This document shows positions 5,636 through 32,466 of a stretch of DNA of 32,466 nt, in pieces (the stretch's first letter is position 1; every line of letters starts with the position of its first letter). The notes below the pieces were generated by a model. It saw only the letters and a program-made list of their open reading frames with translations, made no database searches and was not told where the DNA came from. The position numbers and the translations under genes were made by a program. This DNA is from a virus, in the IMG/VR virus record IMGVR_UViG_3300049823_000224, positions 1 to 32,466 of that record; one strand, written 5' to 3'.

Positions 5636-7045
5636 ATGACGCCGCAACAGCAACAAGCCCTATTAGAGCAAATAGCGACACAAGCCGAAAGGCTGGTACT
5701 TAACCTTGGCAAATATGAGCGCTATGTGCAGATCAAGTACGATTATTACAATGCCGACAACGATACGCGCGACTATGGCATATCCGTGCCAACGAAAATG
5801 CGACGTATGCGGCCAGGCGTGGGCTGGGCCTCCCGCGCCGTAAATATTCTTAGCGACCGCGTTGTATTTGACGGGTTTATCAATGATACCTTTGGAGTTA
5901 ATGGCCTATTCAAACAAATAAATGCCCTGCCGGTTATCAACAAAGCCAAGCACGACGCCATTTTAGCTGGGTGCGCTTTCGTGGCCATAGGCGATAAAGA
6001 CGCTGACGATGATATTGACGGTGACGGGCCCATGCCTACACCTCCGCAAAAAATCCTCGTGCCATTCACGGCTACCGAGGCCACTGGCTGGGTTGATCCG
6101 CACACTGGTCTATTAAGGGCCGGGCTGGCAGTTACGCGCTGGGCCAAGCCGAGCAGCACCGGCCGACCGAACCGCAAACGGCTTTTCACATACGACCCGC
6201 AAGACTACATTTTATTCACCAAGCAATATACTGCGACCTTTGAAAATGCCGAGCTAGTTGAGGTTGTGCCAAACCCGACCGGCCGCTGCCTACTCCTGCC
6301 GATTATCCGCCGCCCAAGCGCCGACCGGCCGCTAGGCAAGGCCCGTATCAATAACACGGTCCGCCGCATTATTAACGAAGTTTCAAGGCTCAAACGGCGC
6401 GAGGAAATAGCCGAGGAGTTTTACGCCCTGCCCCAGCGCTATATAAATGGTCTGGCCGAGGGCGCCAAAAAAGACCAAAACCTAGATAGCGCTATTGGCA
6501 AGGTTTGGGCCATAACTAAAGATGAGGACGGCGACAAACCAGATATTGGCCAGCTCGGCCAAATGTCAATTAACCAATTTGAAACGGCCAAAAAAGACAA
6601 GGCGCGCGACTTTTGCGCCGAAACGGCGCTTACATTGCGCAACCTTGGATATGAAACCGGCAATCCTACGACAGCCGATAGCCTGGAGGCTATGAGCGAC
6701 GACCTAGTGCTTGAGGCACAGACCACCCAAAGCGAAATGGGCGAGCAGATCAAGCAAATCGCCATTACTTTGCGCATGGCCATTGACGGCATAAACACCA
6801 TACCTGACGGGCTAAAGGCGCTTGTGCCGGCCTGGAAACCTATTTTTAGGGTCAATATCGGCGAGGCCGGCGACGCCATGTTTAAGCTATTCCAGGCCAT
6901 GCCAGAGCTTGTAGGAACGGTTGAGGGCTACCAAATGCTGGGTATTAGCTTACGGCAAGCAGAACAGCTACAACAGGCCCGCGCCAAGTTACCAGCCACT
7001 ACGTTTATGCAGCCGAAACCACCGAAAGGGGATATAACATCATGA
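5636..7045 (+). CDS. Portal protein (SPP1 gp6-like)
   Basis: 469 aa; size, acidic/helical C-terminus and adjacency to the adaptor gene. Confidence 0.75.
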   Translation: MTPQQQQALLEQIATQAERLVLNLGKYERYVQIKYDYYNADNDTRDYGISVPTKMRRMRPGVGWASRAVNILSDRVVFDGFINDTFGVNGLFKQINALPVINKAKHDAILAGCAFVAIGDKDADDDIDGDGPMPTPPQKILVPFTATEATGWVDPHTGLLRAGLAVTRWAKPSSTGRPNRKRLFTYDPQDYILFTKQYTATFENAELVEVVPNPTGRCLLLPIIRRPSADRPLGKARINNTVRRIINEVSRLKRREEIAEEFYALPQRYINGLAEGAKKDQNLDSAIGKVWAITKDEDGDKPDIGQLGQMSINQFETAKKDKARDFCAETALTLRNLGYETGNPTTADSLEAMSDDLVLEAQTTQSEMGEQIKQIAITLRMAIDGINTIPDGLKALVPAWKPIFRVNIGEAGDAMFKLFQAMPELVGTVEGYQMLGISLRQAEQLQQARAKLPATTFMQPKPPKGDITS

Positions 7046-7455
7046 GCGCCTATGCAACCACCGATCAGCTAGCAGCCTTTTGGCGAACACTTACGGCCTC
7101 CGAAATTACGCGGGCGAACGTCTTGCTTGATTTGGCCAGCAACCGACTGCGGCAAATAGCCGAGGACGTAGAAGTTGACCTAGACGCCAAGGTTGCCGCT
7201 AGCACCGTTTTTGCGGCAAATGTGCAATGGGTGGTCATGGAGGCCGTAAAACGCGCCATGCTGGTGCCTACGGACGCCCCACCGGCAAATCAGGTCCAAC
7301 AAACGGCCGGTCCGTATAGCCAAAACATCGTATATGCCAATCCGGCGGGCGATCTGTGGTTTAAGAAAGCCGAGTTGCACGCTATAAGCCTTGATTACAA
7401 GCAGAGCCTTGATAGCCTTAGTACAACACCAAATAATGACATATACTCAAGCTAG
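7042..7455 (+). CDS. Head-to-tail adaptor (Gp19/Gp15/Gp42-like)
   Basis: ATGA overlap with portal; N-terminus YATTDQLAAFWRTLTASEITRANVLLDLASNRL fits the 'YAT.edl..rw..Lt..E...a..lL.dAs' adaptor pattern. Confidence 0.55.
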   Translation: MSAYATTDQLAAFWRTLTASEITRANVLLDLASNRLRQIAEDVEVDLDAKVAASTVFAANVQWVVMEAVKRAMLVPTDAPPANQVQQTAGPYSQNIVYANPAGDLWFKKAELHAISLDYKQSLDSLSTTPNNDIYSS

Positions 7456-7457
7456 CC

Positions 7458-7910
7458 ATGTTAAACGCAAATATACGAAAAGCCCGGCCTCCGCTAATAA
7501 TAGTAAGCCCGCTTAGTTTCTGGCTGTGCATTGGTTATGTTGGTCTAAATCTGGCGCTGGGGTATGTAGTCTATAGCGTGCCTGATACGTCGGGCCTGGC
7601 GCTTTATAGGTTATTCAGCCAGCACTTTATTGGCGCTGCCTTTGCCCTTAATGCGCTGGTATTATTATTTACTTTGGTAATAAACGCCTGGCGCGGCATA
7701 CGCTTTATGCTTGGCACCGGGCTTTTTATAAAGGCCATGTACGCATACTCGCTTATTGCCCTCGGTATAAAGGTTGGTTTTGAAAACATCAACGGGATCA
7801 TGGCAATATGGCTATTTATCACTTGGGTACAATTTTGCCTAATAGTATTTTTTGCACCGCCGCTATTAAACGGTCATGTGAAAGGTGGGGCGCATGGTAC
7901 AGCAAAGTGA
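7458..7910 (+). CDS. Integral membrane protein (about 4 TM segments)
   Basis: 150 aa with four long hydrophobic stretches; starts 2 nt after the adaptor stop. Confidence 0.6.
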   Translation: MLNANIRKARPPLIIVSPLSFWLCIGYVGLNLALGYVVYSVPDTSGLALYRLFSQHFIGAAFALNALVLLFTLVINAWRGIRFMLGTGLFIKAMYAYSLIALGIKVGFENINGIMAIWLFITWVQFCLIVFFAPPLLNGHVKGGAHGTAK

Positions 7911-8253
7911 TAGCACAGCACTAGCCATAGCGGCCATGAGCGCATTTACTGTGTTGGTTGCTTGGGTTTTCCGATATAAAATCGCCGAGCTGGCCCGCCG
8001 CAAGACCAAGGCGCCGCAGGAAGTATTGTTTGAGGGTTACGAAAAACTACTTAAAAGCTACCAGTCGGCTATCAGCGACCGCGATAATAAAATCGCCGAG
8101 CTGGAGGCTAATTTTGACAAAATGCAAGCAGACTTAGACGCTGCGCGCAATACGATTAACGAATTAAAAACCCAAGACGCCAAAAAAACCCGGATTATCA
8201 GCGAGCTAGAATTGCGATTAAGCGAACTGAAAACCCTGCACCAGCAAACATAG
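7894..8253 (+). CDS. N-terminally membrane-anchored coiled-coil protein
   Basis: ATG 7894 after AAAGGTGGGG; TM LAIAAMSAFTVLVAWVF followed by heptad-rich KIAELEANFDKMQADLDAARNTINELK. Confidence 0.55.
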   Translation: MVQQSDSTALAIAAMSAFTVLVAWVFRYKIAELARRKTKAPQEVLFEGYEKLLKSYQSAISDRDNKIAELEANFDKMQADLDAARNTINELKTQDAKKTRIISELELRLSELKTLHQQT

Positions 8254-8279
8254 ACAAATATTGCGCTAATGTTCCGCCA

Positions 8280-8288
8280 TGCTATAAT
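8280..8288 (+). promoter_or_regulatory. Extended -10 promoter TGCTATAAT upstream of the major tail gene
   Basis: TATAAT at 8283-8288; TTGCGC 16 nt upstream. Confidence 0.6.
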
Positions 8289-8355
8289 TAGACCATAAAG
8301 CCGAGCGCCTGGAACACGGCAGTTGGGCCAACAAAATAGACAACGGAGTATTACC

Positions 8356-8913
8356 ATGGCTAATGACGCTAGTAACGTGTCGTTTGGTAAGCCAAAGTCA
8401 GCCGGTGCGGTTTATGTCGCCCCTGCTGGCACGACCCTCCCCACTGACGCCACTACGGCGCTCAATGTTGCTTTTGTCAGCATGGGCTATATCAGTGATG
8501 ACGGTCTGGTTAATTCAGTAAAAACTGACGTTGAACAGGTCCACGCTTGGGGTGGCGACAAGGTACTTGTCGGCCAAACCACCTTTGGCGAAACCTTTAC
8601 CGTCAATTTGCTGGAAACCAACGCCGACGCGCTCAAAGTGTATTACGGTGATGACAACGTTTCGGTAAGCGGAGATGACATTACAGTTACACAGAACAGC
8701 GAGGAGCTGGACGAAGTAGTTGTAGTGTTTGAGCTGGTCCTGACCGGCGGCCGCGTCAAGCGTATCGTGGTGCCACACGCCAAGATCGCTGACCGCAGCG
8801 GTGACATTACCTACACCGACAAAGACGCCGTTATGTACCCAGCCGTGTTTGAGGCTTTGCCCGATAGCGACGGCAACTCTCACACCGAGTACATAGCTGT
8901 AGTATCGTCCTAA
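8356..8913 (+). CDS. Major tail (tube) protein
   Basis: ATG 8356 with GGAG 7 nt upstream (track start 8323 is a TTG); 185 aa; N-terminus SFGKPKSAGAVYVAPAGTTLPTDATT typical of siphovirus tube proteins; sits directly before the chaperones; strong terminator follows. Confidence 0.65.
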   Translation: MANDASNVSFGKPKSAGAVYVAPAGTTLPTDATTALNVAFVSMGYISDDGLVNSVKTDVEQVHAWGGDKVLVGQTTFGETFTVNLLETNADALKVYYGDDNVSVSGDDITVTQNSEELDEVVVVFELVLTGGRVKRIVVPHAKIADRSGDITYTDKDAVMYPAVFEALPDSDGNSHTEYIAVVSS

Positions 8914-8931
8914 TCGGTATAGCACGCAGGA

Positions 8932-8960
8932 ACAGCCCGCCAGCCGGGCTGTTTTTGTTT
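8932..8960 (+). terminator. Rho-independent terminator after the major tail gene
   Basis: acagcccg/cgggctgt 8-bp stem, loop ccagc, then TTTTTGTTT. Confidence 0.85.
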
Positions 8961-8967
8961 CTGGCGG

Positions 8968-8979
8968 TTATGCTATAAT
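8968..8979 (+). promoter_or_regulatory. Extended -10 promoter TTATGCTATAAT
   Basis: Motif read directly; GGAG RBS at 9000-9003 before ATG 9013. Confidence 0.65.
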
Positions 8980-9012
8980 TGGCGTGATATTAACAAAATG
9001 GAGTAAATACCC

Positions 9013-9321
9013 ATGAGCGATCAAGAATCGGCCAAAAGCGCCAAAACAGAAAACGCAAACATTAAAGAGGTGACGTGCGACGGCTATACATTTAGCGTTG
9101 ACCTAGACGCGGTGGACGACGTGGACAACGTGGAGCTGATAGACAAAATAGAGAACCAGCAAAACCTAAAGGCCATTGTTGATTTTCTAAAAAACATACT
9201 TGGCGACAAGGACTATGATAAACTCAAAGCCTACTTCGTTGAGAAAGAGGGGCGCCTGAAACTGTCAAAACTGGGCGACATTTACGAGGCGATATTTAAG
9301 GAGTTTAACCCAAAAGGTTAG
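9013..9321 (+). CDS. Tail assembly chaperone (gpG-like)
   Basis: 102 aa, acidic, located between the tube and tape measure genes; slippery site at its 3' end. Confidence 0.75.
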   Translation: MSDQESAKSAKTENANIKEVTCDGYTFSVDLDAVDDVDNVELIDKIENQQNLKAIVDFLKNILGDKDYDKLKAYFVEKEGRLKLSKLGDIYEAIFKEFNPKG

Positions 9322-9713
9322 CCTTACTTAAAATACGCCGGCAGTATTTTGACGAGCTAGAGGCAGATTTTCAGCAATATTATGGCCTAGACATTGCGGC
9401 GGTCCGGCCCGCCCGCGCTGCTAGGTTAATGTTCCAACTGCCAACTAAAAGCCGGCTTTTCCGGGCGCTTGAGCCGTCCAATAATTGGGACTGGCAAGAA
9501 ATGTTGCTGAATAAAGCCACCTACCTTTTAGAGGTGCTGGCGTGGCAACAAACCAAGGACGCCCAAAAAGGGCGCCGATCAACCGCACCAAAAATGTATA
9601 CACCTGATTTTATGAAACAGGCCGCCAAAAAGAACCTTGACCCCGACCAGGCGCTATATACAACCGACCAGATTAAAGATATTTTAGCCAAGCCAAGAAA
9701 GAAACAGGGGTAG
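9013..9713 (+). CDS. Tail assembly chaperone -1 frameshift fusion (gpGT-like, about 233 aa)
   Basis: The -1 frame is open from 9309 to 9713 and overlaps the 0-frame end only across the CCCAAAA heptamer. Confidence 0.7.
9309..9315 (+). other. Programmed -1 ribosomal frameshift slippery heptamer C CCA AAA
   Basis: X XXY YYZ heptamer in the correct phase (0-frame codons CCA 9310-9312, AAA 9313-9315), 4 nt before the 0-frame stop at 9319. Confidence 0.7.
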
Positions 9714-9728
9714 ACCCCTGTAATTTAT
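9704..9728 (+). terminator. Weak terminator-like hairpin at the end of the chaperone gene
   Basis: acagggg/cccctgt stem with loop taga (contains the stop codon), followed by an interrupted T-tract (aatttat). Confidence 0.35.
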
Positions 9729-9843
9729 CACTCCCCTGCCCCGACCATTTTTACTGTTCCACCCCAAGAGCGCCGACGGGCCAGGTATAAGCAGGGCAGA
9801 GCAGACTAAACCTATTTTGTCAAATAATAGTATAGTAGTAGGT

Positions 9844-10137
9844 ATGGCAAAAGACGTAACATTTCAGCTAGACACAACCGCCGCCGGCAAGATAATTTTG
9901 CAGGATATGTGCGCAAATATTGTTAAGCAATCCGCCCAGGCCATAAAGGATCGGGCAACCGGCATGGCGAGCGCACAGTCAACCGAGGCGCCAGGCTATA
10001 GTCTTTTCGTGAGCGTTGGCACAATTAAGCGTGGCCGCCGGGCCATAGCGACCGTTAAAGCCAACGACGGCGACGCCCACCAGGAATATATCGCCCACCA
10101 GGCGTTAATCAAGGCTAAAGACGCTGGTCGGGTCTAA
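9844..10137 (+). CDS. Hypothetical protein (97 aa) inserted between the chaperones and the tape measure
   Basis: ORF track 9817 (TTG) trimmed to ATG 9844, 8 nt after TATAGT 9831-9836; no SD. Confidence 0.45.
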   Translation: MAKDVTFQLDTTAAGKIILQDMCANIVKQSAQAIKDRATGMASAQSTEAPGYSLFVSVGTIKRGRRAIATVKANDGDAHQEYIAHQALIKAKDAGRV

Positions 10138-10141
10138 TAGC

Positions 10142-10153
10142 TTATGTTATAAT
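10142..10153 (+). promoter_or_regulatory. Extended -10 promoter TTATGTTATAAT upstream of the tape measure
   Basis: Motif read directly. Confidence 0.6.
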
Positions 10154-10226
10154 TTCATCAGAAAAAGCCAACGCTGACGGTTGCGGTAAAACTGGAAAAC
10201 AATAAAGGCAAAAACGAGCGCAACCA

Positions 10227-12962
10227 ATGGCAAACACAATAGGCACAGCTTACATAAACATAGCCCCGAATATGTCGGGTATTCAGGGCAAAATCGCGGG
10301 CGGATTACGCGGTAGTGGTACGGCATTTGCCAGCCAATTTGGTAATGAAATTAGCGGAAAATCCGCTTTTATAATCGGCGCCATTGCCGGCGTGGCCCAA
10401 AGTGCCGTTACTAAAGCCACGAGCCTTATAAGCAATTCTATCGGGGCCGCCGTCAAGCGCGTAGATACACTTAATTCAGCACAAAAAACATTTGAGTATA
10501 TGGGCTTTAAGGCCAGCGATAGCGCCAAAGCCGTAAAAGACGTAACCGCGTCCATTTTGGGTCTACCAACGCCACTGGACGGAGCCATACGGGGCATGAT
10601 GGGCCTCGCGGCAACATACCAGGACGTGAAACTTGGCCAAAAGGTATTTTCGGCTCTCAATGACGCCATTTTAGGTTTCGGTGGTAGCGCTGATATGGTA
10701 GACAATGCCGTACAGCAGTTATCACAATTACCACTGGACGGCCCACTGGACGCCCAAACCTGGAACAGCCTACGGAACAGCGGACTTACACCGGTTTTAG
10801 TTGCCATTGGTAAAGATATGGGGCTTTCTGTTAGCCAGCTAAAAGAAAAGCTGGGAAGTGGTCAGCTTACTGTCCGAGATTTTACAAACGAATTAACCAA
10901 ACTTGATACCAAGGGTGGCGGTGGTTTAACCTCGCTACATAAAATAGCCCTGACAGCCACCAGCGGGATTGGCACCGGCTTTGCTAATATGCAGACCGCC
11001 ATATCGCGCGGGTTGGCAAACATTATCCAGGCCGTAGGCCAAAAAAATATTAGTGCTGCGATTACCAACATCGGCAAAATCTTTGAACAGGCTTTTGATA
11101 AAATCGCCAAGATTATACCGATCGTAATACGCGACATAAAATCATTTTTTGACTTTGTAAGCAAAAACAGTCAGATTTTCGCACCTATAGCTGTGGGTAT
11201 TGCTGCCATAGTAGCCGCATTGGCCATTTGGAAAACCGCCCTGCTGGTCTGGCAGGGTGTCACAAAGGCCGGGATAGCCATACAGGCCGCCTTTAATGCT
11301 GTAATGGACGCCAACCCCATTGGCTTGCTGGCGCTGGCCATAATCGGCCTCGTGGCGGGTCTGACGTACTTATTCAGAAACACAGCAGCCGGTAAAAAAA
11401 TATTTGCCGAGCTATCAAAGATATTTGGTGCTGTTGTTAGCGGTGTTAAGGCATTATTTGGTGCGTTTACAAACGGCCGCACAACTGTCGGTGGTTTTAT
11501 TGGCGTTATGGAAACGCTAGGCATTGCACTAAAAAAGGTTTGGGATTTTGTAGGCAAACAGTTAGGTGGAGCATTTAACGCCCTTGGTAGCATTTTCAAG
11601 CAAACCAGCCACGCACTACAGCCACTAATAACCGCTATCGGCGGTTTTGTAAAAGGCGTATTAGCAAATAAAACCGTGATGACCATACTAAAAGATATTG
11701 GCATAGCATTACTCGCACTAGCCGCGGCACCAGTGATAGCGTTTTTTGGCATTTTGATAGGTACATTAACGGTTGTTTCCAAAGTCCTGCAATTTGTCGC
11801 CGATCATTTTAAGCTATTCAAGGTCATAGTGCTGGCCGCCCTCGCGCCTATCATCGCGCCGATAGCATTATTTGTAGCTGCCATAAAAGTAATACCGACC
11901 GTCATTAGTGCCGTCGCTGGTGCTATTTCCGCGGTTTTCGGCGCCATTGCGGCCGCCTATAACGCTACGCTCGGTCCAGTTTTCAGCCTAATGAAAACAG
12001 TTATAACCGACATTTTGACGATCTACGTTAGGGTGTGGGCTTTCATTGGCGTTATCGTCCTCGGTACGCTATTCATGATTGCCGGCGTAATAAAAAACGT
12101 CATGACAGCCATTTGGGGAGTGATTAGCAGCGTATGGTCCGCAGTTTGGGGGGTCATCAGCAACGTGCTTGGCTGGATCGGCACCCGCATTGTAACCGCC
12201 TGGAACTTCTATTATGGAATTATTAGCGGCGTCCTCGGTACGATTTGGGGCGTAATATCTGGCGTCTGGAACCGCATATGGGGCTTTATAAGCGGAGTAG
12301 CCGGCGCAATAGCAAATACCATAGCCGGCGCATGGAACCGCGCATACAGCGCCGTAGCTGGGCCCGTAAGCCGTATTTGGGGAGCCATTACGGGTACATT
12401 TAATCGGATTGTCGGGTATATCGGCAGTATCGGCGGCCAAATCGCCCGCATAGTCGGCGGCGCCGGAAGTTGGCTATACAATGCCGGCCGGAGTGTCATA
12501 CAGGGCTTTCTAAATGGTATGGGGTCATTGATTGGCAGCATAGCGTCCTTTTTCCTGAACAAACTGCCTGGCTGGATAAGAAAGCCGTTTGAACACGCAC
12601 TAGGCATACACTCGCCCTCTAAGGTATTCATGGATTACGGCGAAAACACCATAGCCGGTTATGTAAACGCTGTTAATGCCGGGCAGAATAAAGTCACCGG
12701 CGCAGTCAGCAATATGGCCGACGCCGCCATTAAAGGCATATCTGATACCAACCTGACGGCGCCCATATCTGCGACCCTGAACACCCCAAGCGCCAATAGC
12801 TTGGCGCCAGGCACGCAGGGCGGCAATAGTACCCACCAAGAGGTAAGAATAGGCCAGGTGGTCCTGGGCGACCAAGGCGCCGTAAAAGAGTTTTTCAAAC
12901 AGCTAGACCAAGATACAATAGCAGTAGGTATGGGATTAACACCGGCGCAGGGGGCGCGATAA
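10227..12962 (+). CDS. Tape measure protein (911 aa)
   Basis: Length, position, long Ala/Gly/Ile-rich hydrophobic core, 11-residue aromatic repeats, C-terminal LGIHSPSKVF motif. Confidence 0.9.
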   Translation: MANTIGTAYINIAPNMSGIQGKIAGGLRGSGTAFASQFGNEISGKSAFIIGAIAGVAQSAVTKATSLISNSIGAAVKRVDTLNSAQKTFEYMGFKASDSAKAVKDVTASILGLPTPLDGAIRGMMGLAATYQDVKLGQKVFSALNDAILGFGGSADMVDNAVQQLSQLPLDGPLDAQTWNSLRNSGLTPVLVAIGKDMGLSVSQLKEKLGSGQLTVRDFTNELTKLDTKGGGGLTSLHKIALTATSGIGTGFANMQTAISRGLANIIQAVGQKNISAAITNIGKIFEQAFDKIAKIIPIVIRDIKSFFDFVSKNSQIFAPIAVGIAAIVAALAIWKTALLVWQGVTKAGIAIQAAFNAVMDANPIGLLALAIIGLVAGLTYLFRNTAAGKKIFAELSKIFGAVVSGVKALFGAFTNGRTTVGGFIGVMETLGIALKKVWDFVGKQLGGAFNALGSIFKQTSHALQPLITAIGGFVKGVLANKTVMTILKDIGIALLALAAAPVIAFFGILIGTLTVVSKVLQFVADHFKLFKVIVLAALAPIIAPIALFVAAIKVIPTVISAVAGAISAVFGAIAAAYNATLGPVFSLMKTVITDILTIYVRVWAFIGVIVLGTLFMIAGVIKNVMTAIWGVISSVWSAVWGVISNVLGWIGTRIVTAWNFYYGIISGVLGTIWGVISGVWNRIWGFISGVAGAIANTIAGAWNRAYSAVAGPVSRIWGAITGTFNRIVGYIGSIGGQIARIVGGAGSWLYNAGRSVIQGFLNGMGSLIGSIASFFLNKLPGWIRKPFEHALGIHSPSKVFMDYGENTIAGYVNAVNAGQNKVTGAVSNMADAAIKGISDTNLTAPISATLNTPSANSLAPGTQGGNSTHQEVRIGQVVLGDQGAVKEFFKQLDQDTIAVGMGLTPAQGAR
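12108..12470 (+). repeat. Eleven tandem 11-residue repeats (consensus about xIWGxISGVWN) inside the tape measure
   Basis: AIWGVISSVWS/AVWGVISNVLG/WIGTRIVTAWN/FYYGIISGVLG/TIWGVISGVWN/RIWGFISGVAG/AIANTIAGAWN/RAYSAVAGPVS/RIWGAITGTFN/RIVGYIGSIGG/QIARIVGGAGS. Confidence 0.7.
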
Positions 12963-13760: not shown

Positions 13761-15512
13761 ATGCAAAAAGAATATTTATATAAAGTTTATCGTAACGGTG
13801 CCTTTTTGGGCTGTCTGCCAAAAGTAAAAAGCACCTTTGGCTTTACGCAAAATGTCAATGCGGCCGGTCCGAACCAAATAACCGTCGTGCTTGGCCAGTC
13901 GGCCGACGTATCAAGGTTGGCGCCTGATCCTATTTTGGACGAGGCCGGCGAGGAGGTTTTGGACGAGGCCGGGCACATCGTATACCCCGAACGGGCGGCG
14001 GAAGTTGTCGGCAATAGCAACTCCAAGATTTTGGCCCGCAACGGCAACCAGGTAAAGATTTTTGAATATAGCGACCGCTACCCTAACGGCAAATGTATGT
14101 ATAACGGTCGTATTAAGAACTGGAAAGGCGTTTGGGGCGATGACGGCGATATTACGTTGGTCATTTATCCCGACGCCGCCGAGCTTGATAACAACCCGCT
14201 AGTAGGCAGCCCATACACGGCCGACCAAAGCCAAACGTCCAGCGATTCCACGGTGAGTATTTATCAGGTTATTGGTACGACGTGGGGCTACTATATGGCC
14301 GGCCAAACCTTTCAGACCGGCAGTGGCCAAACCAATATAGCGGCCATAGACTTGAAATTGGGCGGCGCTGGCGATACTGGCCTAACGCATACTGTCCTTG
14401 TTTCGTTGCACTCATCTGCCAGCGAGGCCACAATCTTGGGCCAAGCCAGCCGTGTCATAACTGGCGACGGCAGCGCGCATGTTTATAAGTTTGTGTTCCC
14501 CTCGCCAATAGAGATAAGCGCCAGCACTACATATTTCTTTAGTGTGCGGATTGGTGGCAGCAGTGGTGGCAGCGCGATATTGGCATACAAAGCTAGCAAT
14601 GTATATGCAAATGGCGTCAATTACGACCGCTACAACACTGGGGGCAAGGGTGGCACCGTCCGCGACTGGACTACTCCGCCAAACTCAAGTGTCGGCATGT
14701 CTACCGGCGATCTATATTTTGTAACCTATAATAGCGGCGGCGAAACCACTGCTGTATTCACGGACGCCGACCCGACAGCAGATATGATCAAAACCGCCAT
14801 GGACAACTACATTTCTAGTGGTGGCAATATTACCTATGACGACGCCGATATAGAGGCCACAGGCGAGGCAGTTGACTATACCTTTATCGGCGCCACGGTC
14901 TTTGCCGGCATACAAAAAGCATTACAGATGTGCCCGGCTGGCTATTACTGGACTGTTGACCCTGGAACCAACAAATTGAGCGTTAAAAACATGAGCGATA
15001 CCGCTGACATTGTGATAACCAAGGGCAAAGATATTAACGTGCTTGAGCTTAGTGCCAGCATTGAAAATGTTAAAAACGACATACCATTTAGCGGCGGCCT
15101 AGTAAGCGGCTCAAACCTCTATAAGCGATATACCAACCAGGAAAGCATAAACGAATGGGGCCGCGGCTACGACCCGCAGAGCGATAATCGCGTCACGATA
15201 GCAGATACCATGGATCAGCTCGGCACCACCAGACTGGCCATAGAAAAGGACGAACAATACCAAACCAGTGTTACCCTTTTGGACGCCAAGACAGATATAA
15301 CCCTTTGCAAGCCAGGCATGACAATAGGTTTTGCCGGCTTTGGCCCGACCGTAGACGCCTTGGTGCTTATGATTGTCAGTCTTGAATATACGCCCGATAC
15401 GGCAAAATTGGGCCTCGGCAGCCTACCGCCCCGCACGGTCGTAACGCTAGATCAAATAAATCGCGAACTGGACGCGTTGCAGACGGTGGACAATCCCGAC
15501 GCCCCGTCGTAA
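13761..15512 (+). CDS. Tail-associated (Tal-like) baseplate/tip protein
   Basis: 583 aa following Dit; assigned by synteny. Confidence 0.55.
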   Translation: MQKEYLYKVYRNGAFLGCLPKVKSTFGFTQNVNAAGPNQITVVLGQSADVSRLAPDPILDEAGEEVLDEAGHIVYPERAAEVVGNSNSKILARNGNQVKIFEYSDRYPNGKCMYNGRIKNWKGVWGDDGDITLVIYPDAAELDNNPLVGSPYTADQSQTSSDSTVSIYQVIGTTWGYYMAGQTFQTGSGQTNIAAIDLKLGGAGDTGLTHTVLVSLHSSASEATILGQASRVITGDGSAHVYKFVFPSPIEISASTTYFFSVRIGGSSGGSAILAYKASNVYANGVNYDRYNTGGKGGTVRDWTTPPNSSVGMSTGDLYFVTYNSGGETTAVFTDADPTADMIKTAMDNYISSGGNITYDDADIEATGEAVDYTFIGATVFAGIQKALQMCPAGYYWTVDPGTNKLSVKNMSDTADIVITKGKDINVLELSASIENVKNDIPFSGGLVSGSNLYKRYTNQESINEWGRGYDPQSDNRVTIADTMDQLGTTRLAIEKDEQYQTSVTLLDAKTDITLCKPGMTIGFAGFGPTVDALVLMIVSLEYTPDTAKLGLGSLPPRTVVTLDQINRELDALQTVDNPDAPS

Positions 15513-16669: not shown

Positions 16670-17008
16670 ATGGAACCCAAGACGGCCAAAAAACCGCGCC
16701 GCAAACTGCCATTTAATCAGACTTGGAATGATACGACGTGGAAAGAGGCCCGTAAGCGGGCCATGGCGAGCAAAGAGCCTTACTGTGCCGTCTGTGGTGG
16801 GTTTATTGACATGCAAGCCAAGGCGATGACACCAAACTCTTGCGAGGTAGACCATATAGTGCCTATTAGCCGCGGAGGCCAGCCGTATGAGCTTGATAAC
16901 CTCCAACTGACACATATGCGTTGCAACCGCAAAAAAGGCTCTAAAATGGCCTCTGACTATGCCGACGGCGTTATTGAGAACCCAGTACCGCTATCAAATG
17001 CCTGGTGA
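16670..17008 (+). CDS. HNH endonuclease
   Basis: CAVCGG...CEVDHIVPISRGGQPYELDNLQLTHMRCNRKKG. Confidence 0.8.
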   Translation: MEPKTAKKPRRKLPFNQTWNDTTWKEARKRAMASKEPYCAVCGGFIDMQAKAMTPNSCEVDHIVPISRGGQPYELDNLQLTHMRCNRKKGSKMASDYADGVIENPVPLSNAW

Positions 17009-18050: not shown

Positions 18051-18431
18051 CTAATCTTTGACCTGTTCAACATCACGGCTGCCCTTTAGCATATTGCACC
18101 ACCAGCACGCCGGCTTTAGATTATCAATGTCAAAGCGTTTACTCGGATCGCGCGACCGGCTAACGACATGATCCAATGTCAGCATGGATATATCAATCTG
18201 GCCCGGACATTTCGGGCTAATCCGCAAATAGCACTCCCAGTATTTATCGTTAATCGGTGGGGGGTTTTTCCTAATCCAGGTCTTGCGGGTCATATCCCAT
18301 TGCTTGGCGTATTTGCCGCGCTTTTTGAGCTTTGGGCGCTCGGCCTGTTTTTTCGGGTGCTTAAAGCACTGGTATGGAAAATGCCCGCGGGAGCCACACC
18401 ACTTGCAGGGCTTTTTTGGGAAACGGTCCAT
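18051..18431 (-). CDS. HNH endonuclease with an N-terminal CCHC zinc knuckle
   Basis: CKWCGSRGHFPYQC ... LDHVVSRSRDP...DNLKPACWWCNMLKG. Confidence 0.8.
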   Translation of the reverse strand: MDRFPKKPCKWCGSRGHFPYQCFKHPKKQAERPKLKKRGKYAKQWDMTRKTWIRKNPPPINDKYWECYLRISPKCPGQIDISMLTLDHVVSRSRDPSKRFDIDNLKPACWWCNMLKGSRDVEQVKD

Positions 18432-22374: not shown

Positions 22375-22500
22375 ATGAAATGCGCAAATTGCGGTGGTCC
22401 GGTCTACGACCATAAAAGCAGTGTGCCAGATCGCAATATTTTGCTATGGACTTGCGACTGTTTGCCGCGGCAATTAAGCACAGGTTATTCACAGCCTTAA
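22375..22500 (+). CDS. Small Cys-rich (Zn-ribbon-like) protein (41 aa)
   Basis: MKCANCGG...WTCDC; starts 2 nt after the upstream stop. Confidence 0.4.
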   Translation: MKCANCGGPVYDHKSSVPDRNILLWTCDCLPRQLSTGYSQP

Positions 22501-22587
22501 CGGCGTCTAGTGCTGGTATTGTTTCCACAGCGCTATATGTGCCGGTTGCGCCGATCATAATATTTGCCTATAATAGCCAATCCAGTC

Positions 22588-22598
22588 GTACAAGTTCA
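22588..22598 (+). repeat. Direct repeat GTACAAGTTCA, copy 1
   Basis: Exact 11-mer also present at 22736-22746. Confidence 0.8.
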
Positions 22599-22735
22599 AA
22601 CCCTTAGAGGCGACACAAAAAAATCAGTTAAGGGGCCACACTCAAACTCAGGCGAAAGCGGAGGAGTGAACAGGCACTATACAGAAAACAAAAAGACCGC
22701 CAGTGACGACTAGCGGCCTCTTGCGCCCGTGGGCT

Positions 22736-22746
22736 GTACAAGTTCA
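22736..22746 (+). repeat. Direct repeat GTACAAGTTCA, copy 2
   Basis: Exact 11-mer, 148 bp downstream of copy 1. Confidence 0.8.
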
Positions 22747-22857
22747 CGAGGCTAGTATAGATATTGCCTAGCACATTGTCAATTAAAAACTGTCTTACTT
22801 AACCAAGTACCAGCCTAAATCTATGGCTCAAGACGAAAGAGTGATAGTGTTATAACC

Positions 22858-23049
22858 ATGAGAGTTAATACAACACGTATAGGCCGGGTGCTACAGCTCT
22901 ACAGCCAAATGGTTGAGCGCCAACCTTTCGGCCGGCATACGCGCGACAAAAAAGAAATGCGAGCAAACTGCGAATGGGTCCGCCGCGCCGAGGCTTGGGG
23001 TGAGCGCCATGTTGATGCTTGGGGCTACTTCATGGGGCTTTATCAATAA
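22858..23049 (+). CDS. Possible small protein (63 aa)
   Basis: ORF track only; competes with overlapping ORF 22913..23098; no SD. Confidence 0.3.
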   Translation: MRVNTTRIGRVLQLYSQMVERQPFGRHTRDKKEMRANCEWVRRAEAWGERHVDAWGYFMGLYQ

Positions 23050-23136
23050 AATACTTGCAATCATTACCATTATGTGCGTAATATTAGGTAACTCTTAAAA
23101 ACTTAGAAACGCCAAAAACGAATTGGAGGCAAAACA

Positions 23137-23238
23137 ATGTTACTAAAATTAGCAATATGGTATATCAACCGGGTAGCCACTGGCGTGCCGGCGCAACCAC
23201 ACTTTGACCCGACCACCGATAAAGTAATTTGGACTTGA
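23137..23238 (+). CDS. Possible micro-protein (33 aa)
   Basis: GGAGG at 23125-23129, 7 nt before the ATG; MLLKLAIWYINRVATGVPAQPHFDPTTDKVIWT. Confidence 0.3.
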   Translation: MLLKLAIWYINRVATGVPAQPHFDPTTDKVIWT

Positions 23239-23263
23239 CAGCCAAAACGGTAGGGGGTATATT
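23235..23263 (+). promoter_or_regulatory. Near-consensus sigma70 promoter TTGACA-17-TATATT for the long early operon
   Basis: TTGACA at 23235-23240, TATATT at 23258-23263. Confidence 0.7.
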
Positions 23264-23296
23264 GGCTGGGTAAGCATAAATCAAATTGGAGCAAAT

Positions 23297-23413
23297 ATGC
23301 AGCACGACCAAAAATCAACAACCCAAAAAATTGAAATAGCCGGCATATGGGCCGCAAGCATTGTCTTGCTGGCCTTTTTCATTGCCGCGCAAATAATTAA
23401 GGCTAGGGGGTAA
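23297..23413 (+). CDS. Single-TM micro-protein (38 aa)
   Basis: GGAG at 23288-23291; MQHDQKSTTQKIEIAGIWAASIVLLAFFIAAQIIKARG; its stop lies 1 nt before the next ATG. Confidence 0.5.
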   Translation: MQHDQKSTTQKIEIAGIWAASIVLLAFFIAAQIIKARG

Positions 23414-23414
23414 C

Positions 23415-24074
23415 ATGGCAGACTTGAAGTTTAAGCTAACCAGTGAAACGAAAATAAATATATTTGGCTATAAGCTATTCCGTATTGAGGCGACCGCAAC
23501 TTTCAAAAATGGCGATCAGCAAATTACTGCCGGCCAAAAAGGCGGTTGGGTTGATACCGAAAGATTAGAAAACGGCGAGGCGCGGGTGTCCGGCAATGCG
23601 TGGGTGTCCGGCAATGCGCAGGTGTACGGCGAGGCGCAGGTGTACGGCGAGGCGCAGGTGTCCGGCAATGCGCAGGTGTACGGCGAGGCGCAGGTGTCCG
23701 GCAATGCGTGGGTGTCCGGCAATGCGCAGGTGTACGGCGAGGCGCAGGTGTACGGCGAGGCGCAGGTGTACGGCGAGGCGCAGGTGTCCGGCAATGCGCA
23801 GGTGTACGGCAATGCGCGGGTGTACGGCAATGCGTGGGTGTCCGCTAAAAAGAACTTCACCAAAGGCTGGTTTGTTGCTGCCGATGATGACGATGAGCCT
23901 AAAAAGCTCACAGTATTACATGGTGAAGTTGATGAGGACGAAGACAGTCCCTATTGGGCTAATACTTACGTTCTTGGCGACTATGAAATAACCGATATTG
24001 AGGCTACAGAAACCGATGACGAGCCCGACATTATTGAACATAACGGCAAGCGCTATAAGCGCATTGAGGAGTAA
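23415..24074 (+). CDS. Hexapeptide-repeat (beta-helix-like) protein with an acidic C-terminus
   Basis: 15 consecutive G[NE]A[QWR]V[SY] hexads after N-terminal ...KLFRIEA...GQKGGWVDTERLENG. Confidence 0.8.
   Translation: MADLKFKLTSETKINIFGYKLFRIEATATFKNGDQQITAGQKGGWVDTERLENGEARVSGNAWVSGNAQVYGEAQVYGEAQVSGNAQVYGEAQVSGNAWVSGNAQVYGEAQVYGEAQVYGEAQVSGNAQVYGNARVYGNAWVSAKKNFTKGWFVAADDDDEPKKLTVLHGEVDEDEDSPYWANTYVLGDYEITDIEATETDDEPDIIEHNGKRYKRIEE
23574..23843 (+). repeat. Tandem 18-bp repeat x15 (GGC[GA]A[GT]GCG[CT][AG]GGTGT[AC]C)
   Basis: Units are near-identical at the nucleotide level; the repeat is stop-free in several frames (track ORFs 23516..23911-, 23596..23991+, 23600..23848+). Confidence 0.95.
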
Positions 24075-29310: not shown

Positions 29311-29623
29311 ATATCTGATAATAGCGTTAATCGGCCTGGCGATTAACTTTATAGAAACCGGCCTTTTTGGCTGGCATTGGAAAGCTCAAAGCGGCGCCGA
29401 GCATTACTGGGACGTTTTCAGCGCCATATTGATTGCTTGGGGTGTTATAGGCGACATTTTAAGCAATGTGCAAATACACAAGCACTATAACGACACCAGC
29501 ACTACCAACATCACCACCAAAACCGTTAAAGTTGGCGGCAAGCCAGTAGTACACTACAACTTTGGCACTACCAAGCAGGAAACAGAGGCGTTACTAGCCG
29601 GCAAACCGAGCAAATCTAAATAG
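29297..29623 (+). CDS. Membrane protein (2 TM, 108 aa)
   Basis: AAAGGAGG before ATG 29297; its 3' end overlaps the integrase 3' end by 8 nt. Confidence 0.55.
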   Translation: MQKRKYLIIALIGLAINFIETGLFGWHWKAQSGAEHYWDVFSAILIAWGVIGDILSNVQIHKHYNDTSTTNITTKTVKVGGKPVVHYNFGTTKQETEALLAGKPSKSK

Positions 29624-30587
29624 CGCCAACTCGCCTAGATTTATGAAATTGCGCATGCACCTTTTTTAAGTGCGGGTCGGTAACGTGTGTATAAATCTGC
29701 GTGGTAGAAATATTGCTATGGCCAAGCATTACCTGGACTGACCGTAGATCGGCACCATTCATGAGCAAATCAGTGGCAAAGCTGTGTCGCAAAGTGTGCG
29801 GGCTGACATGCTTGCCAATACCGGCCAACCTAGCATATTTGGCAACCAACCGCTGGACACTCCGGGCGCTCAAGCGCATGTAATTACTATTGGCGGCCAC
29901 CCTTTTGGCACCAGCGTATCGTATAAACATCGGCTTAGCATTATCCTTGCGCTTATTAAGGTATTTTTTTATGTAGCGGGCCGCCTCGCGGCTCAAGAAT
30001 ATTGGCCGGTCTTTTTCGCCTTTACCGCGCACCGTAAACTCGCGCCGACGCAAATCTATTTGGTCGCGATCCAACTCCACCAATTCAGATACTCGTAAAC
30101 CGCTGGCAAATAGTAGCTCAATTATTGCCCGGTCGCGCAAACCAGTAATATTTGACGTTTCTGGTTGCGCTGTAAGCCTCTGCATATCTTCGGCAGTCAA
30201 AAACGTCACCTGTGGGCGTCGTACACGCGCCAGAGCCACGGCATTAGGCATTAAGGCGGGTATATTACGCTTGGCGCAGAAACTTAGAAATGAGCGCAAG
30301 GCTATAAGGTGGTAATTCTGCGTAGTTTTAGACAGGCCAATATCCAGCCGGTTGAGCCATAGCCGCCACTGGCGCACCAACTCCTCATTAATCTTAATCA
30401 CCTCAATATCACCGGCAAACTCGCCAAACCGCCCAAGCTGGTGCCGATAGCTGGCAATCGTGTGTGCCGACAGGTTTTGCTCAAGCTCTAAATATTCAAA
30501 ATATTGCCCTAATGCCTGGTCGTATCGCATGTGCTTATTATACAGCATATCTGACCCCTGTATCACGCTAGATATAGCGTAATTCAT
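29616..30587 (-). CDS. int: Tyrosine recombinase/integrase, XerC/XerD-like (alternative start 30548)
   Basis: LFASGLRVSEL, HTLRHSFATDLLMNGADLRSVQVMLGHSNISTTQIYTHV (R..HxxR..Y). Confidence 0.9.
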   Translation of the reverse strand: MNYAISSVIQGSDMLYNKHMRYDQALGQYFEYLELEQNLSAHTIASYRHQLGRFGEFAGDIEVIKINEELVRQWRLWLNRLDIGLSKTTQNYHLIALRSFLSFCAKRNIPALMPNAVALARVRRPQVTFLTAEDMQRLTAQPETSNITGLRDRAIIELLFASGLRVSELVELDRDQIDLRRREFTVRGKGEKDRPIFLSREAARYIKKYLNKRKDNAKPMFIRYAGAKRVAANSNYMRLSARSVQRLVAKYARLAGIGKHVSPHTLRHSFATDLLMNGADLRSVQVMLGHSNISTTQIYTHVTDPHLKKVHAQFHKSRRVGAI

Positions 30588-30786: not shown

Positions 30787-31422
30787 TTAAATATCTAAAA
30801 CGCGGTTATTCCAAATAGGTTTTTTATCGCCAATGAAGTTATGGGCGATCCGTCGGCCCGGCGCCTCGCCGTGGCCCAATATGCTGCCTAAATCATCGTC
30901 GTGGTCCACTAACGACGGATTTGTATAAAACACAGGCAATCGTTGGCGCATATACGCCCAACCGATACGAAAGTCGTAAAGCTCTTTACGGTCCGACACA
31001 AAGTCCAGCATATCGGCTATATGGTTGGTTGGTATGACGATACAAACGCCCCAGTAGAGCAAATTAGAGCGTAGCCACGACACGTTTTTGGCTTTAGCCA
31101 CTGCTTTGGCCACCCGGTCCGGCAAAGGCCGTGATTGGCCCGTATATAGCGATATAAGCGATTTTACAGGCACGACACTAAGCGCATTTTCCAAATGGGC
31201 GTAAAAATCGGGCGCCAAAATGGCGTCATCTTGCACGACGATGTGCCAATCGCCCTTATCAATGCCGGCCCGCATAGCGCGCTCGCCAGTATGCCACTCA
31301 TCGTTTATTTGGTCCCAAGTAATGCTAACCTCGGCAAAGGGATACTTTTTGAGCTGTCTAGCCAGCGCCTCGGCTTGTTTCTTGCGCCTTTTGTGCGCCA
31401 TAACGGTAATGGTGATATTCAT
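30787..31422 (-). CDS. GT-A-like glycosyltransferase-like protein (211 aa)
   Basis: ITVMAHKRR...WHIVVQDDAILAPDF (DxD-like); ATGA-coupled to the methyltransferase. Confidence 0.5.
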   Translation of the reverse strand: MNITITVMAHKRRKKQAEALARQLKKYPFAEVSITWDQINDEWHTGERAMRAGIDKGDWHIVVQDDAILAPDFYAHLENALSVVPVKSLISLYTGQSRPLPDRVAKAVAKAKNVSWLRSNLLYWGVCIVIPTNHIADMLDFVSDRKELYDFRIGWAYMRQRLPVFYTNPSLVDHDDDLGSILGHGEAPGRRIAHNFIGDKKPIWNNRVLDI

Positions 31423-31958
31423 TGGCCGGCCCTTATGATAGCCGTCATGCTATCGTCTTTATTGTCGGCGTTTCGGAAGTGTGAAACCTCTAATTTAAGC
31501 CGGTCCAGCATTTCAAGCGTCGTATATCGGCTATTTACATACCTCGGCAACAATGAAGTGTGCAAATCCTCCAAAATGTAGTAACCGTTTTTGTTGAGCT
31601 GGTTATAGTACAACCAATAAAAGCTAATTTGCTGATCCAGCGTATAGTGGCTGCCGTCGTCAATGATAATGTCAAAATTGCCTAATTCTTTCAGCGCCTC
31701 TATGTCGGTAGCGTCAATTTTTAATATCTGAACGTCCGAATATTGCAAATGGTCTTTTGGCATAATGTCAATGCCGACAATCTCGGCCTTTGGGTAATAG
31801 TCGCGCCACATTTGAATACTGGCGCCGTCCATTACGCCTATCTCAAGCAACCGACCGCCAAACGTCCGTTTTGGTAGGTGCTTTTGGTAAAAATCCAAAT
31901 ATTTGTGATGTATAGCCTTATCGGTGCCGTAGCGCTCGCCTATCTGCTGTAAAGTCAT
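31419..31958 (-). CDS. Class I SAM-dependent methyltransferase (sugar O-methyltransferase-like)
   Basis: YGTDK..HKYLDFY...LLEIGVMDGASIQMW...IVGIDI...IIIDDGSH. Confidence 0.75.
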   Translation of the reverse strand: MTLQQIGERYGTDKAIHHKYLDFYQKHLPKRTFGGRLLEIGVMDGASIQMWRDYYPKAEIVGIDIMPKDHLQYSDVQILKIDATDIEALKELGNFDIIIDDGSHYTLDQQISFYWLYYNQLNKNGYYILEDLHTSLLPRYVNSRYTTLEMLDRLKLEVSHFRNADNKDDSMTAIIRAGQ

Positions 31959-32466
31959 TTTTTACCATTCCTCGCTAACCACGCCTTGTATTTCGGGTGA
32001 TCCGCGAACTTCTTATGTCCGTATTTGGTATTGAAAATATAGACGTTGCGCCATGTTAGGTCGTCCTGCTCTGTCGGCGCCGCCGTGCGCAAAGTGGCGC
32101 TGGTAACGTGGTCAACCTTGGCGTCGTATACAATCATTGGCTTTATGCCGATTGCCCGGCATTGCTCAATAACCACATCATCGCTACACCAAAAATCCAC
32201 GTCTGTATCAAAGCCGCCTATCTTTTCCCACGTCTTGCGCTTAATCATAAAGCACCAGCCAGACATATGCTTACCGGTGATATAGCCCTCTGTGTTTTTG
32301 GTTATCTCGGCTTGCCGCGGATCATTAGGCTCGCGTGGGCTTACCAGGTCATGGTTGGCGGCCAATAGATGATGTAGCCAGCCGTCATGGAAAACTAAAT
32401 CATTATTGGCTATCATGACCCACTCTGCTTTGCCAAGCCCGGCGCCATGGTTGGCGAACGCGTTGT
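31955..32466 (-). CDS. C-terminal part of the fused double GT2 glycosyltransferase (same gene as 1..932; 32340..32466 duplicates 1..127)
   Basis: IANNDLVFHDGWLHHLL...SGWCFMIKRKTWEKIGGFDTDVDFWCSDDVV, typical GT2. Confidence 0.8.
   Translation of the reverse strand, partial: NAFANHGAGLGKAEWVMIANNDLVFHDGWLHHLLAANHDLVSPREPNDPRQAEITKNTEGYITGKHMSGWCFMIKRKTWEKIGGFDTDVDFWCSDDVVIEQCRAIGIKPMIVYDAKVDHVTSATLRTAAPTEQDDLTWRNVYIFNTKYGHKKFADHPKYKAWLARNGKK
32340..32466. repeat. Terminal exact direct repeat, copy 2 (identical to 1..127)
   Basis: Same 127 nt as the window start; the reading frame of the minus-strand GT gene is continuous across 32339->1. Confidence 0.95.

Follow-up and report, generated by a model that had tools for sequence, protein, structure and literature searches.

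The three-gene cassette analysed here probably O-glycosylates the phage's own virion proteins, in the manner described for Che8 and Corndog, with the sugars carried on C-terminal serine residues; this assignment is drawn from sequence comparison and structure prediction. The cassette is most likely a further instance of a known virion O-glycosylation system, in this case in a widespread family of uncultured phages. The original prediction had offered two explanations: (a) lysogenic conversion of a host surface glycan by enzymes encoded next to the integrase, or (b) a Che8-type glycosylation of the virion itself. The second is well supported by homology, by conserved and co-varying serine tags on structural proteins, and by the loss of these tags in a relative that lacks the glycosyltransferases (GTs), whereas the first is disfavoured. 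To our knowledge, glycosylation of phage particles was first described in 2023 and has so far been tied to a few mycobacteriophages.

The window, i.e., the whole stretch of 32,466 nucleotides that was analysed (IMGVR_UViG_3300049823_000224, positions 1 to 32,466), is a circle of 32,339 bp with a terminal repeat of 127 bp (bases 1-127 are the same as bases 32340-32466). The cassette consists of three minus-strand genes, encoding a 438-aa double GT, a 179-aa SAM-dependent sugar O-methyltransferase (31419-31958), and a 211-aa GT-A glycosyltransferase of the Che8 gp110/Corndog gp38 family (30787-31422). The first of these had been predicted to cross the circular junction, running 932->1 and then 32339->31955. 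Its 5′ part (1-932, codons 1 to ~311) begins with a start codon at 930-932, preceded by the ribosome-binding site AAGGTGG, and encodes the N-terminal GT-A domain and the beginning of the second one; its 3′ part (31955-32339) holds the remainder of the second GT-A domain and the stop codon. In an independent Logan assembly (L092) the same 438-aa gene adjoins the head genes and is in one piece; this shows that the reading across the junction is right. The predicted ATGA overlaps, which indicate translational coupling, are likewise both present (TCAT on the plus strand at 31955-31958 and 31419-31422), so that the methyltransferase gene overlaps its neighbour at each end. A XerC/D-like tyrosine integrase gene (29616-30587, minus strand; Pfam Phage_integrase, 5e-45) adjoins the cassette but is not part of it.

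As had been claimed, the cassette is the only minus-strand block, at least for convincing open reading frames, apart from the integrase gene and a single HNH gene (18051-18431). The accompanying claim that the block is AT-rich overstated a minor difference: the cassette has a GC content of 48.0% compared with 49.7% for the genome, a value undercut by 11% of windows of the same size, and only the methyltransferase gene (44% GC) stands out in composition. The idea of a foreign AT-rich island was rejected on these values. Between the cassette and the divergently oriented head genes is an intergenic region (933-1284) that includes one GC-rich and one AT-rich stretch as well as a hairpin (1223-1241), and that presumably holds promoters; features of an attP site or an origin were sought in it, and none could be demonstrated. 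The ends of a syntenic contig, IMGVR_UViG_3300031215_000052, have a similar layout, with an AT-rich stretch followed by a run of G residues, and share no detectable sequence with this region.

All four catalytic domains that had been predicted for the cassette (two GT-A domains, a class I methyltransferase of the sugar-modifying type and a third GT-A domain) were recovered by Pfam, AlphaFold2 modelling and matches to known structures. In the 438-aa protein, the N-terminal domain gives a Pfam GT2 match (5e-13) and contains the motif FVDDDD at residues 72-77, of which DDDD (74-77) is invariant. The second domain has invariant NND (289-291) and SDD (363-365) motifs, as well as DTD at 355-357. The AlphaFold2 model (pLDDT 83) forms two GT-A domains; as a whole it is matched best, in fold, by enzymes that also carry two GT-A domains in a single chain, namely the K4CP chondroitin polymerase and the heparosan synthase PmHS2. 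However, the TM-scores are low (~0.33) and the sequence identity is ~10%, and these matches do not imply a polymerase activity. Pfam gives no match for the 211-aa protein, and its model (pLDDT 92) is likewise a GT-A fold, whose best viral fold match is gp87 of the cluster F Mycobacterium phage Ardmore (TM 0.84). Its residues QDD (64-66) and H174 are invariant. Both models combine a Rossmann-like domain with an acidic DxD-type motif, the features by which a GT-A enzyme was recognised, and together they match GnT-I, POMGnT1, COLGALT1, PBCV-1 A64R, ppGalNAc-T2 and K4CP.

The methyltransferase matches two sugar O-methyltransferases of solved structure over residues 3-140, MycE (3ssm, 1e-16) and a TylE-type enzyme (8ia9, 7e-13). 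The alignment covers the SAM-binding catalytic core (class I SAM fold); the phage protein, at 179 aa, differs in being without the large N-terminal auxiliary domain (MycE has 419 aa, and the macrolide enzymes in general roughly 400 aa).

The original prediction regarded the architecture of the cassette as unusual, a view that does not hold up. PHROGs contains full-length families for all three proteins (phrog_8858 for the double GT, 1e-102; phrog_21658 for the methyltransferase, 1e-40; phrog_854 for the 211-aa enzyme, 8e-41), and a fused GT with a methyltransferase is present in Mycobacterium phage Omega and in 22 records of Gordonia phages. Among sequenced proteins, the closest relatives of the double GT and of the methyltransferase are those of Omega and the Gordonia phages, where the gene order is the same: the double GT is 53% identical to Omega gp16 and 57% identical to GTs of Gordonia phages (53-57% overall; Ronaldo gp122 and Forza gp93 are examples), and the methyltransferase is 55% identical to Omega gp17. 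Gp16 and gp17 of Omega lie directly after the major head gene. A search of the literature found no experimental work on Omega gp16/gp17 or the Gordonia homologues. Unlike the phage described here, Omega and the Gordonia phages are actinophages of 68-115 kb.

For function, the comparison is with the operons gp108-gp110 of Che8 and gp35-gp38 of Corndog. The 211-aa enzyme is related to Che8 gp110 (BLASTP 1e-14, identity 29%) and to Corndog gp38 (4e-12), and the N-terminal part of the double GT to Che8 gp108 (42% identity, 3e-43). Between the methyltransferase and Corndog gp35, BLASTP at 1e-2 found no match. In common with the Che8 and Corndog operons, then, the cassette has a GT-A enzyme of the gp110/gp38 family and unites a gp108-related GT, an O-methyltransferase and several GT domains in one operon. 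It differs in that two of the GT domains are fused, and in that it resides in a genome of 32 kb, with about 50% GC, that belongs to an uncultured family. Che8 gp110 and Corndog gp38 are described as the two GTs essential for capsid glycosylation (PMC12363180), and in cluster O phages an O-methyltransferase and three GTs modify the capsid and the tail tube (PMC11600133). According to PMC12619734, which cites Freeman 2023, the glycans are located at the C-termini of the subunits of capsid and tail tube.

The virion proteins of the phage itself provide the second line of evidence. Four of them end in serine: the major capsid protein (2655-3569, plus strand; HK97 fold, phrog_10), ending ...ESAVASS with the terminal serine codons at 3561-3566; a Gp19-family head-tail adaptor (7042-7455, plus strand; Pfam Phage_Gp19, 7e-20), ending ...DIYSS; the major tail, or tail tube, protein (8356-8913, plus strand; phrog_117, 3e-50), ending ...IAVVSS; and a 583-aa tail protein encoded downstream of Dit (13761-15512, plus strand), ending ...NPDAPS. 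The first and third are predicted acceptors, the adaptor is a predicted additional acceptor and the 583-aa protein is a possible fourth. The capsid and tail-tube subunits of Che8 (...KTGS and ...SDGS) and Corndog (...LVGS and ...KGDS) are also Ser-ended, and by analogy the glycans would be attached here as well. In Che8 and Corndog the tag is confined to these two proteins, whereas here it is found also on the adaptor and the 583-aa tail protein. The portal ends in Ser in this genome and does so inconsistently in relatives, and it was dropped as a candidate acceptor.

The terminal serine is strongly conserved. It is found in 120/120 of the closest capsid homologues, in which the residues before it are variable, and in the adaptors of 25/28 relatives and the tail tubes of 22/25; the 583-aa tail protein ends in ...PS or ...PT in all seven of the relatives examined. 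Background frequencies are far lower, at 4/38 for outgroup prophage capsids and 23/150 for representatives of distant tail-tube homologues. Moreover, the flavour of the tag agrees between the proteins of one genome, with combinations such as SS/SS/SS, AS/GS/AS, DS/ES/DS and SA/SA/SA. The last two residues of capsid protein and tail tube are identical in 14 of 21 genomes, compared with 5.5 expected from shuffles, a contrast that overstates independence in that the genomes are related; roughly three to four independent changes of the tag can be made out. In one relative (L031) the tags are mismatched, with PSA on the capsid and AS on the tail tube. Ser-ended proteins are found further afield as well: in Gordonia phage Ronaldo, which has a 57%-identical GT, the capsid protein, connector and tail tube are Ser-ended, and gp43 ends ...EDES, and a distant lineage with Ser tags (L043) has other glycan genes.

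The syntenic contig mentioned above (29,316 bp) offers the converse situation. GTs are absent from it by both tblastn and Pfam, and none of the four proteins carries the tag: the capsid protein ends ...SVIADA, the adaptor ...GESIV, the tail tube ...EYIAVV and the 583-aa-type tail protein ...NPDQPD. The contig is without a terminal repeat, and it is conceivable that a cassette lies beyond the contig break. An alternative in which tags and cassette are unrelated, the terminal Ser serving assembly or proteolytic processing while the cassette acts on a different acceptor, would draw on this possible incompleteness, on the correlative nature of the link between tag and cassette, and on Omega, which has the fused GT without a Ser-ended capsid. 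We consider such a coincidence improbable, since the tag is common to four structural proteins that are unrelated to one another, and it changes in all of them together. As for Omega, its capsid ends ...PTFA and its second GT, gp23, is not gp110-like; because Omega has the fused GT and the methyltransferase together with this capsid ending, and shows no gp110-like GT, the fused enzyme by itself is not tied to the Ser tags.

The 211-aa enzyme is the only member of the cassette that is found in all cassette variants of the relatives. (Locus scans with the double GT or the small GT as single proteins returned almost nothing, and an alignment-based scan was needed to find the related loci.) The relatives keep the gp110-like enzyme and swap the other modules, having instead another two-domain GT together with a polysaccharide pyruvyl transferase or a different methyltransferase. 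Their cassettes occupy the same place beside the head genes, without an integrase nearby.

This last point bears on lysogenic conversion, in which enzymes expressed from the prophage would alter a polymer on the surface of the host (O-antigen, teichoic acid or another wall glycan) and so block superinfection or change the serotype. The proposal has a clear precedent, in that GT-A enzymes encoded next to int remodel the host surface in Shigella gtr phages and S. aureus TarP prophages, and the present cassette shares with these their GT-A chemistry, adjoins a tyrosine integrase gene and runs on the strand opposite to the late genes. The adjacency is, however, peculiar to this genome: an integrase homologue lies within 6 kb in 0/34 related cassette loci, and the gene neighbouring the cassette in L037 is not an integrase, so the conserved position beside int or att that characterises Gtr systems is not seen. 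Nor is there a GtrA/B/C layout, since the three cassette proteins are all without membrane segments (hydropathy over 19 residues peaks at 1.28), which leaves no transmembrane candidate for a flippase, a bactoprenol-linked GT or a multi-pass GT. A fold search with AlphaFold models had been proposed in the original prediction as a means of comparison with TarP; it returned GT-A folds, and TarP appeared neither in the 50 best fold matches for each of the two models nor among PDB sequence matches at E<=0.1, which argues against a TarP/TarS-type relationship. A repressor-like gene was not recognised within the window. Because the 34 related cassettes are without an integrase and the proteins are without membrane segments, lysogenic conversion is very unlikely; it would also leave the conserved, co-varying Ser tags, and their loss in the relative without GTs, unexplained.

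A target other than the virion might also be modified during lytic growth, such as hypermodified bases of the phage DNA, or a host cytoplasmic component or wall precursor. The label of PHROG 854, 'glucosyltransferase', is compatible with this, and GTs that glycosylate phage DNA are well known (Pyle 2024, as cited in PMC12619734). We give this idea very little credence. Among the proteins of the window, searches against PHROGs and Pfam found no hydroxymethylase, thymidylate-synthase-like protein, DNA kinase or other base-hypermodification gene; the nearest characterised relatives act on the capsid and tail tube; and the pattern of Ser tags would again be left without an explanation.

With glycosylation of the virion as the preferred reading, a plausible pathway can be outlined. 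The gene structures, folds and homologies, and the conservation and co-variation of the Ser tags, are observed, whereas the choice of priming enzyme, the sugars used, the timing of expression and the benefit to the phage are inferred. The cassette supplies three soluble, cytoplasmic enzymes from one coupled operon that diverges from the head genes. The 211-aa enzyme would recognise a short, flexible tail with Ser-COOH at its end and transfer the first sugar to that serine; such tails are borne by the major capsid protein and the tail tube, by the Gp19-type adaptor and probably by the 583-aa tail protein. The 438-aa protein, with its two GT-A domains, would then form two more linkages, or possibly build a repeating pair as two-domain polymerases do, and the MycE-like enzyme would O-methylate a sugar hydroxyl. 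An implication of module swapping among the relatives is that different glycans may be built on the same protein anchors. The pay-off for the phage may be shielding of the particle, its stability or its surface behaviour.

Several searches bear on the relatives and the host of the phage. When the cassette and 24 kb of the genome were compared by megablast with 50,697 phage records, nothing matched; the window contains no tRNA genes or Rfam families, and no att-like repeats were found beside int. A metagenome scan with the integrase gave relatives at <=33% identity and no integrated copy. A 95.9-kb contig with a 69%-identical GT was considered as a host chromosome and rejected, as it is a different, larger phage. 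In a scan of genome collections, the only close match was a 33.5-kb contig that binning had assigned to a Candidatus Saccharimonadales MAG, and the distant capsid relatives were mostly prophages of Actinomycetota. Saccharibacteria are episymbionts of Actinobacteria. Isolate phages in which the small GT has a homologue infect Actinobacteria without exception (607/607), and we know of no Che8/Corndog-type virion O-glycosylation system outside phages of actinobacterial hosts.

Finally, we note a broader scenario, which is possible but rather doubtful at present. Virion O-glycosylation might extend beyond the phages of mycolic-acid Actinobacteria and belong to the core traits of a large family of uncultured ~32-kb phages, which possibly infect Saccharibacteria. 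Such a system would rely on a portable code, in which a gp110-family enzyme primes any virion protein whose short flexible tail has a terminal Ser; on at least four proteins with such a tail, the head-tail adaptor among them; and on swappable modules that vary the glycan in much the way that O-antigen loci do.

The locus also yields a rule that can be checked by eye in sequence data: co-varying C-terminal Ser tags on structural proteins travel with a gp110-like enzyme, and the rule predicts glycosylated virion proteins, two of which (the adaptor and the 583-aa tail protein) were not reported before. If confirmed, a short tag and one small enzyme would make a compact tool for placing defined glycans on phage particles. 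For the family itself, whose capsid has more than 1,600 homologues in public data, the locus suggests that the same glycosylation machinery is a fixed feature of widespread uncultured phages, and the interchangeable tailoring modules point to diversification of the glycan on a constant protein anchor.

The best reading of the cassette is O-glycosylation of the phage's own virion proteins, a reading inferred from sequence. In the scheme that we favour, the 211-aa enzyme, a relative of Che8 gp110 and Corndog gp38, would prime a C-terminal serine; further sugars would then be added by the two-domain glycosyltransferase (GT), and methyl groups by the MycE-like enzyme.

The window holds a genome of siphovirus type. 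Its first and last 127 bases form an exact direct repeat (1-127 = 32340-32466), and therefore the sequence represents either a circle of 32,339 bp with the overlap written out at both ends or a genome with terminal redundancy. Read across the circular junction, the 438-aa double-GT ORF runs on the minus strand from 932 to 1 and then from 32339 to 31955. Downstream on the same strand are the ORFs of the 179-aa methyltransferase (31958-31419) and the 211-aa small GT (31422-30787), followed by a XerC/D-like tyrosine integrase (30587-29616). The junction-spanning gene of the original prediction is borne out, because in an independently assembled contig (Logan L092) the 438-aa gene is unbroken and divergent from the head genes; the ATGA overlaps claimed to join each cassette ORF to its neighbour are likewise seen at both borders. 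The supposed AT-richness of the cassette is weak, since its GC content of 48.0% is close to the genome's 49.7% and the methyltransferase gene (44%) is the sole outlier.

All three enzyme assignments made from the sequence alone hold up. The N-terminal half of the 438-aa protein matches Pfam GT2 (5e-13), its full length matches PHROG 8858 (1e-102), and its AlphaFold2 model (pLDDT 83) consists of two GT-A domains with a disordered linker between them. The top fold matches are the two-GT-A enzymes K4CP and PmHS2 for the whole chain and polypeptide GalNAc-transferases for single domains, and acidic motifs are invariant across 31 homologues (DDDD 74-77, NND 289-291, DTD 355-357 and SDD 363-365). 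For the 179-aa protein, a class I sugar-type methyltransferase, the closest solved structures are MycE (3ssm, 1e-16) and a TylE-type enzyme (8ia9, 7e-13), both methylators of sugar hydroxyls. The 211-aa protein has no Pfam match; it matches PHROG 854 (8e-41) and is modelled as a GT-A fold (pLDDT 92). Its fold neighbours include the protein-glycosylating GT-A enzymes POMGnT1 and COLGALT1/LH3, as well as GnT-I and the PBCV-1 capsid-glycosylation enzyme A64R, and among viral proteins Mycobacterium phage Ardmore gp87 comes closest (TM 0.84).

Isolated phages carry homologues of all three. The double GT shares 53-57% identity with Gordonia phage GTs and Omega gp16, and its N-terminal domain shares 42% with Che8 gp108. 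In Omega, gp16 comes after the major head gene and is followed by the methyltransferase gp17, which shares 55% identity with that of the window. The 211-aa enzyme matches Che8 gp110 (1e-14) and Corndog gp38 (4e-12); of 50,697 isolate phage records, 607 contain a homologue of it, and every one of these is an actinophage. [quoted passage not shown] 2023.

The candidate acceptors in the window are proteins that end in serine: the capsid (...AVASS), tail tube (...AVVSS), adaptor (...DIYSS) and 583-aa tail protein (...DAPS). The 120 public capsid sequences most similar to that of the window all end in serine (100 SS, 19 AS, 1 GS), and the three to four residues before the tag are highly variable. 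In the relatives' loci a terminal serine is found in 22/25 tail tubes and 25/28 adaptors, and the 583-aa-type protein ends in serine or threonine in 7/7; other structural proteins of these loci have no comparable pattern. The background is low: the capsid ends in serine in 4 of 38 distant prophage relatives, and the tail tube in 23 of 150 representatives (≤56% identity). The flavour of the tag shifts jointly across the proteins of one genome. In the order capsid/adaptor/tail tube, the tails are SS/SS/SS in the window's lineage, AS/GS/AS in a second lineage, EDS/GES/SDS in L043 and PSA/GSA/ASA in L045, and capsid and tail tube of L135 both end in NGGS. Capsid and tail tube share their last two residues in 14/21 genomes, against 5.5 expected from shuffles, a figure inflated by relatedness; about three or four of the coordinated changes can be seen to be independent. 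In the Gordonia phage Ronaldo, an isolate with a homologous GT, the capsid ends in ...YAGS, the tail tube in ...EPAS, and the connector gp43, encoded after the capsid gene (L184 990-1403), in ...EDES.

One relative, IMGVR_UViG_3300031215_000052 (29,316 bp, reassembled from three loci), shares the window's gene order from head closure through the last plus-strand genes. It gave no match to the GT, methyltransferase or integrase queries, its unassigned ORFs contain no GT domain, and none of its four proteins is tagged (capsid ...ADA, adaptor ...SIV, tail tube ...AVV, 583-aa-type ...QPD). The contig, which has no terminal repeat and may be incomplete, is a candidate natural knockout of the cassette. 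Its end, with a hairpin, an AT-rich stretch and a G-run, matches the layout before the window's head-closure gene, and so leaves little room for a cassette. Another gene of this relative, adjoining a glutaredoxin-like ORF, has a product clearly homologous to the Thoeris inhibitor Tad3 (L047 17757-18194; Pfam PF25185, 1.4e-34).

Two other functions can be considered for the cassette. Lysogenic conversion of a host surface glycan was suggested by its position beside the integrase; however, no integrase homologue lies within 6 kb of the cassette at any of 34 in-family loci, and therefore this adjacency is peculiar to the window genome. Because, in addition, none of the three proteins has a candidate membrane-spanning segment, and conversion would leave the serine tags unexplained, it is disfavoured. 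DNA glycosylation by the same enzymes would call for companion genes, and the scans of the window's proteins turned up none for base hypermodification.

The cassette is modular, and its constant element is the gp110-like gene, present in every ~32-34-kb relative represented by both capsid region and cassette locus. Among the 34 loci are three main layouts, each with this gene: the double GT and methyltransferase of the window (about 10 loci), a different 463-468-aa GT with a polysaccharide pyruvyl transferase (Pfam 3e-12; about 15 loci), and that same GT with another methyltransferase (2 loci). The module is evidently mobile between phage lineages, since an unrelated phage contig, L090 (Logan SRR29257392, 95,886 bp), has the cassette at 8562-12532 (double GT 69% and methyltransferase 65% identical), with a gp110-like GT and an upstream 479-aa GT akin to the alternative GT found in type B cassettes. 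The distant L043 lineage combines serine tags with a pyruvyl transferase, a rhamnosyltransferase-like GT, a Stealth-like protein and a methyltransferase. A more distant relative, IMGVR_UViG_3300010946_000876 (L185 11120-16988), has acidic serine tails on three virion proteins (EDS/GES/SDS). Its genes include those for a polysaccharide pyruvyl transferase, a methyltransferase, a rhamnosyltransferase-like GT and a Stealth-CR2-like protein, but BLAST found no gp110-like GT. Tags of this kind may be primed there by another chemistry.

The remaining genes include a head and packaging set (head closure, tail terminator, scaffold, minor head protein, terminase subunits), the major capsid (2655-3569), portal (5636-7045), Gp19-type adaptor (7042-7455), major tail protein (8356-8913), tail chaperones, tape measure, Dit, the 583-aa tail protein, a CHAP endolysin and a ParB-like protein. 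Across 1285-8913 the structural order is unusual and conserved in the family, with head closure, tail terminator, scaffold and major capsid preceding the portal. Between minor head protein and portal are genes for an HNH endonuclease (4727-5176) and a RusA resolvase (5173-5541), and further HNH genes at 16670-17008 and 18051-18431 (minus strand) make three in 32 kb. The genome is tightly packed except for ~900 bp at 22500-23415, which have no convincing ORF and no Rfam family match and could be an origin or regulatory region. Tandem repeats of VSGNAQVYGEAQ type make up most of a 219-aa protein (23415-24074), with an acidic tail after them; its only PHROG matches, 7964 and 5070, are both of unknown function.

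With regard to the host, a collection of species-representative genomes gave a single close match, at 76% capsid identity. This is a 33.5-kb contig standing alone (JBBSJF010000001.1, 33,546 bp; L051 / L037), a complete-looking member of the window's phage family whose cassette has the double GT and gp110-like GT without the methyltransferase. It is contig 1 of a Candidatus Saccharimonadales MAG, which either hints at the host or reflects misbinning, binning being weak evidence. All other matches are at ≤45% identity, mostly Actinomycetota prophages. Saccharibacteria live on Actinobacteria and have genomes near 45-50% GC; such a host would fit the phage's ~50% GC and actinophage-like genes.

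Finally, we note that virion glycosylation is already known as a kind of system, and the window locus adds another case. New here are the phage family, perhaps also its range of hosts, the tailoring modules that can be exchanged, the rule of tag co-variation, and two extra predicted acceptors, the adaptor and the 583-aa tail protein. Cultured phages, too, may glycosylate the adaptor, a target so far unreported.
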